A stretch of DNA of 64,000 bases from Escherichia coli (GTDB lineage Bacteria; Pseudomonadota; Gammaproteobacteria; Enterobacterales; Enterobacteriaceae), in assembly GCF_003334355.1 (NCBI RefSeq), contig NZ_QOWP01000024.1. One strand, 5' to 3'. Shown here one piece after another: positions 12,001-15,000 of this stretch (its first letter is position 1; the number at the start of each line of letters is the position of its first letter). The position numbers are program-made.

Positions 12001-15000
12001 CGCGGGGCAGGCACGTTCTGACGCGATGGAAGCCATACGTTGTGCCGGGCAAAAAGACTGGCAGGGCGCAACTCAGCTAATGGCCAGTTCTGAATCTGCC
12101 TGTCTTCAGGCACATAAGATTCAGACCGCATTAATTAGTCAGGATGAAGGCTGTGGCAAAATAAAAGTTAATTTAATTCTGGTTCATGCACAGGATCATT
12201 TGATGAATGCAATATTATGCCAGGATTTAGCCAGGGAAATTATTTCATTAAGAAAAGAACTCCATGCCTGATTTTTTCCTCCAGTGCGATAGCTGGAGGA
12301 AATTATTATACTCTTAAGGATAAGTCATGAATATAAAGACGCTTAACATCAGCCTTTTGTCTTTTTCTATTATTACAGCATTGTTTCCATTGAACGCGAT
12401 GGCAACAAAATTAACCATAGAGCAGCGCCTTGAATTGCTTGAAAATGAATTGTCGCAAAATAAACAAGAGCTGAAAGCAACACAGAATGAACTGGGAGTA
12501 TATAAATCCCGACTTTCGACCTTACAAAAAAGCATCACGGAAAACAAATATAAATCAGCCTCGCTTGCTGAAATATCAGCGACATCTCCCGTCGCTGATA
12601 ACATCAAAAATGAAAACGGTGAACAGAACTCGTCTGCCGCAGCGCATACTATAAATGGATCGCAGCAAGTTGCCGTTATTGAAAGTAAAGGCGACAAAAC
12701 CACTATCGAAAGCGTGACCCTGAAAGATATCAGTAAATATATAAAGGATGATATTGGGTTCAGCTATCAGGGGTACTTCCGCTCAGGCTGGGGTACTGGT
12801 AATCACGGCTCACCACAAACTTATGCAGCGGGTTCTCTGGGACGTTTTGGTAATGAGATGAGCGGTTGGTTTGACCTGACCTTAAATCAGCGTGTTTATA
12901 ATCAGGAAGGTAAAACGGCAAATGCGGTCGTTACCTATGATGGCAACGTGGGTGAGCAGTATAACGATGCCTGGTTTGGTGACAGTGCCAATGAAAATAT
13001 CATGCAGTTCAGCGATATTTACCTGACAACGCGAGGTTTTTTACCCTTCGCACCAGAGGCAGACTTCTGGGTCGGCAAACATAAACTCCCGCAATATGAG
13101 ATCCAGATGCTGGACTGGAAAACCTTAACCACGGATGTCGCCGCGGGTGTGGGGATTGAAAACTGGGCACTTGGTGTAGGGCTGTTTGATATGTCCTTAA
13201 GCCGTGATGATGTCGATGTTTACTCTCGTGATTTTTCGCGTACCAGCCAGATGAATACCAATTCTGTGGATGTTCGTTATCGCAATATCCCGTTATGGGA
13301 TGATGCGACATTATCATTAATGGCTAAATATTCCGCACCTAATAAAACGGATCAACAACAAGATAACGAAAATGACAACAGTTATTTTGAAATGAAAGAT
13401 AGCTGGATGCTGACTTCTGTTTTACGGCAAAACCTGCAACGCGATACGTTTAATGAATTTACGTTACAGGTTGCCAATAATTCCTATGCCAGCAGTTTTG
13501 CCAGTTTCTCAGATGCCAGTAATACGATGGCGCATGGTCGCTATTACTATGGTGATCATACCAATGGGATCGCCTGGCGTTTAATCTCTCAGGGCGAGAT
13601 GTATCTTACTGACAATATTATTATGGCTAACGCGCTTGTCTATTCTCACGGCGAAGATGTTTATAGTTATGAAAGTGGTGCTCATAGTGATTTTGACAGT
13701 ATTCGCACTGTAATAAGACCGGCCTGATCTGGAATACATGGAATCAGACGGGGCTTGAATTAGGCTGGTTTAAGCAACAGAACAAAACTCAGCAGGGTGT
13801 AACACTAAATGAATCGGCTTATAAAACGACACTCTGGCATGCATTGAAAGTGGGTGAAAGCATTTTAGGTTCACGACCAGAAATTCGCTTCTATGGAACG
13901 TATATCAATATTCTGGATAACGAATTATCGAATTTTAAGTTTAATGAGAACAGCAAAGACGAGTTTATGGCCGGCATCCAGGCGGAAGTCTGGTGGTAAT
14001 CTATTTTAGTTAAGGAGTTGTGTATGTCAGGATTTAAAAAAGGTTTTTTATGGGGCGGCGCGGTAGCCGCGCATCAGTTGGAAGGTGGCTGGAATGAAGG
14101 AGGAAAAGGCATCAGTATCGCTGATGTGATGACTGCTGGCGCTCACGGGGTGCCGCGTGAAGTGACAGAAGGCGTTATCGACGGGCTTAATTATCCCAAT
14201 CATGAAGCAATTGATTTTTATCATCGCTATAAAACAGATATTCAGTTATTTGCCGAGATGGGATTCAAATGCTTTCGAACTTCCATTGCCTGGACACGAA
14301 TCTTTCCGCAAGGTGACGAACAGGAGCCGAATGAAGAGGGTTTACAATTTTATGATGATCTGTTCGATGAATGCCTTAAGCAGGGAATGGAACCTGTGGT
14401 GACGCTTTCACATTTTGAGATGCCTTATCATCTGGTGACAAAATATGGTGGCTGGCGAAACCGTAAACTGATCGACTTTTTTATCCGCTTCGCATCAACG
14501 GTCTTCACGCGCTATAAAGAAAAAGTAAAGTACTGGATGACGTTTAACGAAATCAATAATCAGGTGAATTTCAGCGAAAGCCTGTGTCCATTTACTAATT
14601 CCGGTATCTTGTATTCGCCAGAGGAAGATATCAATGAGCGCGAACAAATAATGTACCAGGCGGTACATTACGAGTTAGTTGCCAGTGCCCTGGCGGTACA
14701 GACTGGAAAATCGATTAATCCTGAATTTAATATCGGCTGCATGATCGCCATGTGCCCCATCTATCCTCTGACGTGTGCACCCAACGATATGATGATGGCG
14801 ACGAAAGCGATGCATCGTCGTTACTGGTTTACTGATGTTCATGCTCGTGGATATTATCCGCAACATATGCTGAATTACTTTGCCAGGAAAGGATTCAACC
14901 TCGATATCACACCAGAAGATAACGCGATTCTTGCCAGAGGTTGTGTCGACTTTATCGGTTTTAGCTACTACATGTCTTTTACGACACAATTTTCGCCCGA

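Follow-up and report, generated by a model that had tools for sequence, protein, structure and literature searches.

The question raised by this locus is whether the carbohydrate-porin gene of an accessory beta-glucoside phosphotransferase system (PTS) operon in Escherichia coli still encodes a working channel. The gene lies in a window of 64,000 nucleotides (nt) of contig NZ_QOWP01000024.1 (assembly GCF_003334355.1). Its open reading frame (ORF) stops early, and the remainder of the porin continues in another frame. A first-pass annotation proposed that a frameshift truncates the porin and that the operon is decaying or cryptic. Our analysis indicates that the gene is almost certainly a vertically inherited loss-of-function allele of a sugar-specific porin gene. 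As such it is an unremarkable frameshift pseudogene of a familiar type, already flagged in RefSeq, within a known cryptic accessory operon.

The porin ORF has 466 codons and its product ends ...TVIRPA at an in-frame TGA (13725-13727), which is where the first-pass annotation had placed the stop. The -1 frame contains a TGA at 13694-13696 and is then open from 13697, again as annotated, to a TAA at 13997-13999; its product ends ...AGIQAEVWW. Across 2000 shuffles, this 303-nt stretch never stayed open for its 100 codons. The first ten codons (13697-13726) are mere overlap and not ancestral coding, and the last 90 (13727-13996; I468-W557) are the C-terminus of the intact 557-residue protein when one G is restored. 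Alignment of the site between the window and three complete genomes, two deleted (including FDAARGOS_1277) and one intact (strain 504237), gave CCGGCCT-GATCTGG in the window and CCGGCCTGGATCTGG in the intact allele, which reads R-P-A-W-I-W. One G of a GG pair is lost, leaving CCTGATC at 13726 in place of the intact CCTGGATC. This G is the sole length difference between the window gene and the intact allele of strain 504237 (1674 nt, 557 residues; WP_001022785.1), and a second genome (L006) likewise has 1674 nt. The window protein with its G restored has 557 residues and differs from WP_001022785.1 at two of them. Relative to such intact orthologs, which read in a single frame, the lesion amounts to a simple indel. 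The annotation had called it a -1 frameshift, which is correct for the downstream frame; the lesion itself is a 1-nt deletion (the delta-G allele). Loss of one G from the Trp467 codon TGG created the in-frame TGA and moved the last 90 codons into the -1 frame.

The deleted G lies within CCTGGATC (window 13721-13730), which overlaps a Dcm site (CCTGG) and a Dam site (GATC). The deletion abolishes the Dcm motif, and the overlapping GATC remains.

Domain and fold analyses of the reconstructed 557-residue protein identify what the stop removes. The Pfam LamB domain (PF02264) spans residues 147-557 and the complete model (1-378 of 378, E 5.5e-81), while the 466-residue ORF as present covers only about 78% of this domain. 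The reconstructed porin has a signal peptide and a Sugarporin_N domain (PF11471) at residues 30-56 (E 3.9e-7). Together with a long helix at 31-78 in the structural model, this domain points to an N-terminal periplasmic coiled-coil extension of the ScrY/BglH type. A family profile matched E. coli maltoporin LamB (E 8e-112) and ScrY (E 5e-42) end to end, and the 3' remnant aligned to the chain ends of both. The AlphaFold2 model (mean predicted local distance difference test, pLDDT, 84.5; >90 over the barrel) is an 18-stranded barrel like those of maltoporin and ScrY, and Foldseek placed it with 1MPR, 1MAL and 1A0T (maltoporin, ScrY) at template modelling (TM) scores of 0.76-0.79. Both the alignment to LamB-family homologs and the barrel prediction had been suggested as checks on the truncation, and both bore it out. 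By Pfam, profile and predicted fold, the intact allele encodes a LamB-type channel, and its predicted activity is sugar-selective.

Identity between the reconstructed porin and the solved structures of LamB (1MAL/1AF6) and ScrY (1A0S/1A0T) is only 17-23%. A search of the PDB with the single porin sequence found no match, and LamB and ScrY were reached only with the family profile. The porin belongs to a subfamily separate from both. The porin was also considered as a LamB equivalog, which was rejected because its scores against the NCBIfam maltoporin models were under the cut-offs.

The lost segment is conserved across the family. With the premature stop, the last 91 residues are gone, and with them about four beta-strands and the aromatic C-terminal signal for assembly. 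The stop falls just past a conserved R-P that corresponds to LamB R311-P312 (mature numbering), and everything aligned beyond LamB M313 is missing from the window allele. In the model, residue 466 is near the end of strand 452-470, and strands 473-488, 493-508, 519-532 and 545-556 are missing from the truncated ORF. Among 34 aligned full-length members, the lost residues hold four of the 14 invariant columns (K500, P518, R521, G550) and seven of the 19 near-invariant columns (W469, E478, T502, R517, Y526, Q552, E554). The first-pass annotation asked whether some homologs naturally end where this ORF stops. Among 1.84 billion representative proteins searched, no homolog ended near residue 466; full-length homologs were detected down to about 25% identity, and all of these are single-frame and align through query residue 557 to their own C-terminus.

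BamA recognizes a C-terminal signature in which the last residue is Phe or Trp and the third, fifth, seventh, and ninth residues from the end are hydrophobic, and PhoE without its terminal Phe is poorly assembled (PMC2724633). The in-frame end ...TVIRPA is at odds with this signature, and the aromatic ...GIQAEVWW occurs only in the -1 frame. Its assignment to the LamB family in the annotation agrees with the C-termini of 33 homologs, in which a G-x-Q-x-E-x-W-W/F motif is nearly universal. The 466-residue product would lack the tail of one strand, the last four strands, and the signature recognized by the Bam machinery. Because these last strands and the signature are gone, the truncated chain presumably cannot close an 18-stranded barrel and would not be assembled, and the product would probably misfold within the periplasm or be degraded there.

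Distribution of the allele among complete genomes indicates how it arose. The porin gene is carried by 2553 of 5426 complete E. coli genomes. An 81-nt probe centered on the deletion was exact in 71 records, and the intact 82-nt probe was exact in 1568 (of 2550 records with the gene); the remaining approximately 900 gene-bearing records have single nucleotide polymorphisms (SNPs) relative to both probes. Every full-length divergent allele (96.7-97.6% identity) in a spread sample spans the intact 1674 nt, and about 97% of gene-carrying genomes keep a single frame. The 60 best matches to the gene comprise 56 copies of the 1673-nt allele (99.8-100% identity), a single intact 1674-nt allele (JNEC-KY172, 99.9%), and three alleles with an additional insertion sequence (IS) in the porin. 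The delta-G carriers form one tight haplotype group, deposited from about 2007 to 2026 by many laboratories and isolated from humans, pigs, cattle, dogs, birds, a frog, a capybara, river water, and seawater. They include strain HS in four separate records (NC_009800.1 and three later ones). RefSeq labels the identical allele “carbohydrate porin, frameshifted” in FDAARGOS_1277, 2022CK-00450, HS (NC_009800.1), and PSS-12. Because the allele belongs to a single haplotype group and yet appears in many independent assemblies, including those of HS, it is a real inherited mutation and not a basecalling error.

The porin gene is part of a six-gene cluster inserted in the E. coli chromosome, with the gene order ydeE, eamA, the cluster, marB-marA-marR, marC, and ydeA (Table 1). 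The locus is most likely the bgc operon, and the porin would then be bgcH; the likeness lies in gene content and order, namely a divergent GntR-type regulator followed by IIB, IIC, IIA, porin, and phospho-beta-glucosidase. That operon (bgcR; bgcE, F, I, H, A) was reportedly described by Neelakanta, Sankar, and Schnetz in 2009 in Appl Environ Microbiol 75:2284, with BgcH as its porin, and reportedly allows cellobiose, arbutin, and salicin to be used at low temperature after a promoter-up mutation. E. coli also has BglH, a LamB-family porin encoded by the cryptic bgl operon, which is likewise a silent PTS operon for beta-glucosides. The porin described here is similar in being a LamB-family porin inside such an operon, but it is at another locus, with a GntR-type regulator in place of the antiterminator BglG. 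The bgc operon has five genes, encoding BgcE/F/I and BgcA among others, with BgcR of the GntR type, and it is cryptic (PMC3585215); it is one of four cryptic beta-glucoside operons in E. coli (PMC4488073). The operon corresponds to c1955-c1960 of CFT073, an accessory cluster of six genes listed as “PTS system, cellobiose specific” and scored as present in HS but missing from K-12 and O157 (PMC2831201). Besides HS, uropathogenic E. coli/B2 strains carry this accessory cluster. The window strain differs in that its porin and IIC genes are frameshifted. A literature search on marB, eamA, and the porin found nothing relevant.

Table 1. Features of the porin gene and its operon in the window, and insertion sequences in the operons of related strains.
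Feature	Position	Strand	Basis or content
Carbohydrate-porin pseudogene, whole (bgcH-like)	12327..13999	+	100% identity over 1673 nt to RefSeq feature in FDAARGOS_1277, PSS-12, and others
5' porin reading frame, translatable	12327..13727	+	466 codons and TGA; signal peptide, coiled-coil extension, approximately the first 14 barrel strands
Mutation site	13725..13726	+	Ancestral Trp467 codon TGG minus one G; TG and the next A give TGA
Out-of-frame 3' remnant	13727..13999	+	90 ancestral codons (I468-W557) and TAA; last four beta-strands and G-x-Q-x-E-x-W-W signature
GntR-family regulator, divergent (bgcR-like), intact	9288..9986	-	ORF, RefSeq comparison, NCBIfam
PTS enzyme IIB (EIIB), lactose/cellobiose family, intact	10185..10496	+	ORF, NCBIfam
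PTS enzyme IIC (EIIC; bgcF-like), frameshifted	10611..11932	+	CCC at 11248-11250; first frame stops at 11259-11261
PTS enzyme IIA (EIIA), lactose/cellobiose family, intact	11960..12271	+	Between the two frameshifted genes; NCBIfam
6-phospho-beta-glucosidase (bgcA-like), intact	14024..15463	+	NCBIfam NF007154, 1035.9 bits (cut-off 624)
Strain EC21Z-137			IS1B in regulator-IIB intergenic region and ISKpn26 in IIA
Strain 22AR0118			IS1A in IIC and IS66 in glucosidase
Strain AR_0369			IS1 in regulator
Strain S1			IS1 between IIC and IIA
Strain 214-4			IS5 at end of IIB
Strain 13P484A			IS1B in IIC
Strain 2022CK-00450			IS1A in IIC
Strain 102651			IS5 in porin; also on delta-G probe list
Strain TUM14664			IS903B in porin; also on delta-G probe list
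Strain 19SZHZ803Rt			IS1A in porin; porin 99.8% identical, delta-G status not confirmed

A second frameshift is present in the EIIC gene. One C is gone from ATATCCCCGG, a CCCC run that is CCC in the window, which splits the gene into two ORFs (10572-11261 and 11231-11932). This delta-C allele recurs in just one of 2504 E. coli records, that of PSS-12 (NZ_AP027697.1), where RefSeq calls the gene “frameshifted”. The porin and EIIC lesions are independent and of very different ages, because delta-G is lineage-wide and the EIIC deletion is found only in the window and PSS-12. The first-pass annotation was thus right in regarding the two frameshifts as independent, but the genes are not adjacent, as it had stated; the IIA gene stands between them.

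Mobile elements have added further lesions to the operon in the delta-G lineage. An IS lies inside the operon in 15 of the 60 best whole-operon matches, all from the delta-G haplotype group. In an even sample of about 56 other operon-bearing genomes, three had an IS and two had deletions, and most were exactly of intact-gene length. Fisher's test gave p = 0.004 (15/60 vs. 3/56), which is only suggestive since the genomes are not independent samples. The elements in the delta-G lineage are of several types (IS1, IS5, ISKpn26, IS903B, and IS66), and their sites differ between strains. In addition to IS in the porin, this lineage has IS or indels in IIC, IIA, the regulator, and the glucosidase, as would accumulate in a pseudogene and its surroundings. 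These lesions suggest that the operon is decaying. The annotation's description of the operon as decaying or cryptic is supported by the lineage-wide deletion, the varied IS elements, and the match to the cryptic bgc operon. Most delta-G genomes nevertheless retain intact copies of the rest of the operon.

A large delta-G subgroup that includes HS has an extra 1-nt deletion in the GntR regulator, which changes its end from PR* to RDKSRRTEC*. This deletion alters only the last two codons, and the window keeps the ancestral G (9295). Plasmids account for five of the porin/operon matches, and two or three copies occur in a few genomes, suggesting that the operon is occasionally mobile or duplicated.

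The premature stop could also affect the gene downstream. The glucosidase start is 297 nt past the stop, and these 297 nt (window 13727-14023) are left untranslated before its start codon. Because of this untranslated stretch, the transcript could be exposed to Rho-dependent polarity, and a polar effect on the glucosidase gene is possible.

We observed that the deletion is present and inherited, that the lost segment is conserved, and that the operon carries further lesions; from these we infer that a functional channel is absent and that selection is relaxed on an operon that is silent anyway. Nothing direct stands against an inherited loss-of-function allele, but several points temper it. 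The remaining operon genes are intact in most delta-G genomes (HS and FDAARGOS_1277, for example), so the operon has decayed only in part. At high beta-glucoside concentration, uptake may not need a specific porin, and its loss need not abolish the pathway. The identification as bgc, which is probable, draws on gene content and order and on second-hand descriptions.

The loss-of-function reading has practical consequences. The locus should be annotated as one pseudogene and not as two separate ORFs. A working bgc-type beta-glucoside pathway should not be presumed in metabolic models of this strain, as IIC is broken too. The operon also offers a natural time series of the decay of silent accessory genes, with a founding lineage-wide frameshift followed by many independent IS insertions and indels, and in the delta-G lineage it could serve as a small case study of cryptic-operon erosion.

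The loss may have been selected and not neutral. Inactivation would then have been favored, for example, as an escape from a phage or colicin that uses the porin or as the shedding of a costly porin, with the IS elements reflecting hitch-hiking and further selection. The allele has persisted and spread over human, pig, cattle, dog, bird, frog, and water isolates, and LamB-type porins are known phage receptors (e.g., entry 8xcj, the lambda tail fiber bound to LamB), both of which agree with selection. It is nevertheless improbable. The loss was apparently a single mutational event, there was no sign of parallel porin inactivation elsewhere (no systematic survey was made), and the operon is silent under ordinary conditions (PMC4488073), which leaves little for phage to select on. 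The stronger version, in which inactivation was positively selected in an HS-like commensal lineage and the frequent IS in the operon mark continuing selection and not only neutral decay, is slightly more doubtful, and a periplasmic function for the 466-residue remnant is still less likely.

A sequencing or assembly artefact at the CCTGG/GATC methylation motif would also produce a missing G. Some long-read basecallers err systematically at methylation motifs, and the missing G overlaps both the Dcm and the Dam motif. An artefact is very improbable, as the same allele recurs in the 71 records, among them NC_009800.1 and the three later records of HS. It is limited to one haplotype group (at least 99.8% identity), and the intact motif is found in the 1568 other records. 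We reject an artefact because errors would not track ancestry.

It is equally improbable that the 466-residue product, alone or with a C-terminal fragment (for example, from the TTG-initiated ORF at 13844-13999), forms a channel or has a new periplasmic role. The signal peptide, coiled coil, and about 14 strands are still there, and PhoE can assemble under some conditions even when its first strand, or just its final residue, is missing (PMC2724633). The losses in the present case are larger, with four whole strands and the entire C-terminal signature gone, an unfitting ...TVIRPA end, and invariant residues in the missing part. The porin has also received IS insertions in delta-G genomes, as expected of a dead gene.

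Programmed -1 ribosomal frameshifting, or other recoding, to make a full-length porin from the two frames has a negligible probability: a -1 slip in the 31-nt frame overlap (13697-13727) could in principle join them, but the overlap contains no X XXY YYZ heptamer (none was found in a scan of 13680-13730) and no homopolymer run (the only run of at least four in 13680-13740 is TTTT at 13691-13694, which ends before the -1 frame opens), the predicted RNA fold of the 81 nt downstream is no more stable than that of shuffled sequence (-18.2 kcal/mol, z = -1.04; 35 of 200 shuffles fold as well), and the two-frame arrangement is not conserved, being a simple 1-nt deletion in a gene that is a single 1674-nt frame in most orthologs (about 97% of gene-bearing genomes) and in one frame in all distant homologs.

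Because the EIIC deletion is otherwise confined to PSS-12 among the records compared, the window strain is a close relative of PSS-12 from outside the complete-genome collection; it is not PSS-12 itself. Over the 12.3 kb from ydeE to yneK, the two differ by four SNPs and a 4-nt indel, and PSS-12 has an extra IS5 upstream of ydeE. The sequence AATG at window 16670-16673, in the marR-marC intergenic part of the mar regulatory region, is absent from PSS-12. The dgcZ gene is intact in the window (5631-6521) and has an internal stop in PSS-12. Neighboring pseudogenes occur in other relatives as well, with an internal stop in ydeE of FDAARGOS_1277 and frameshifts in yneK of several strains.

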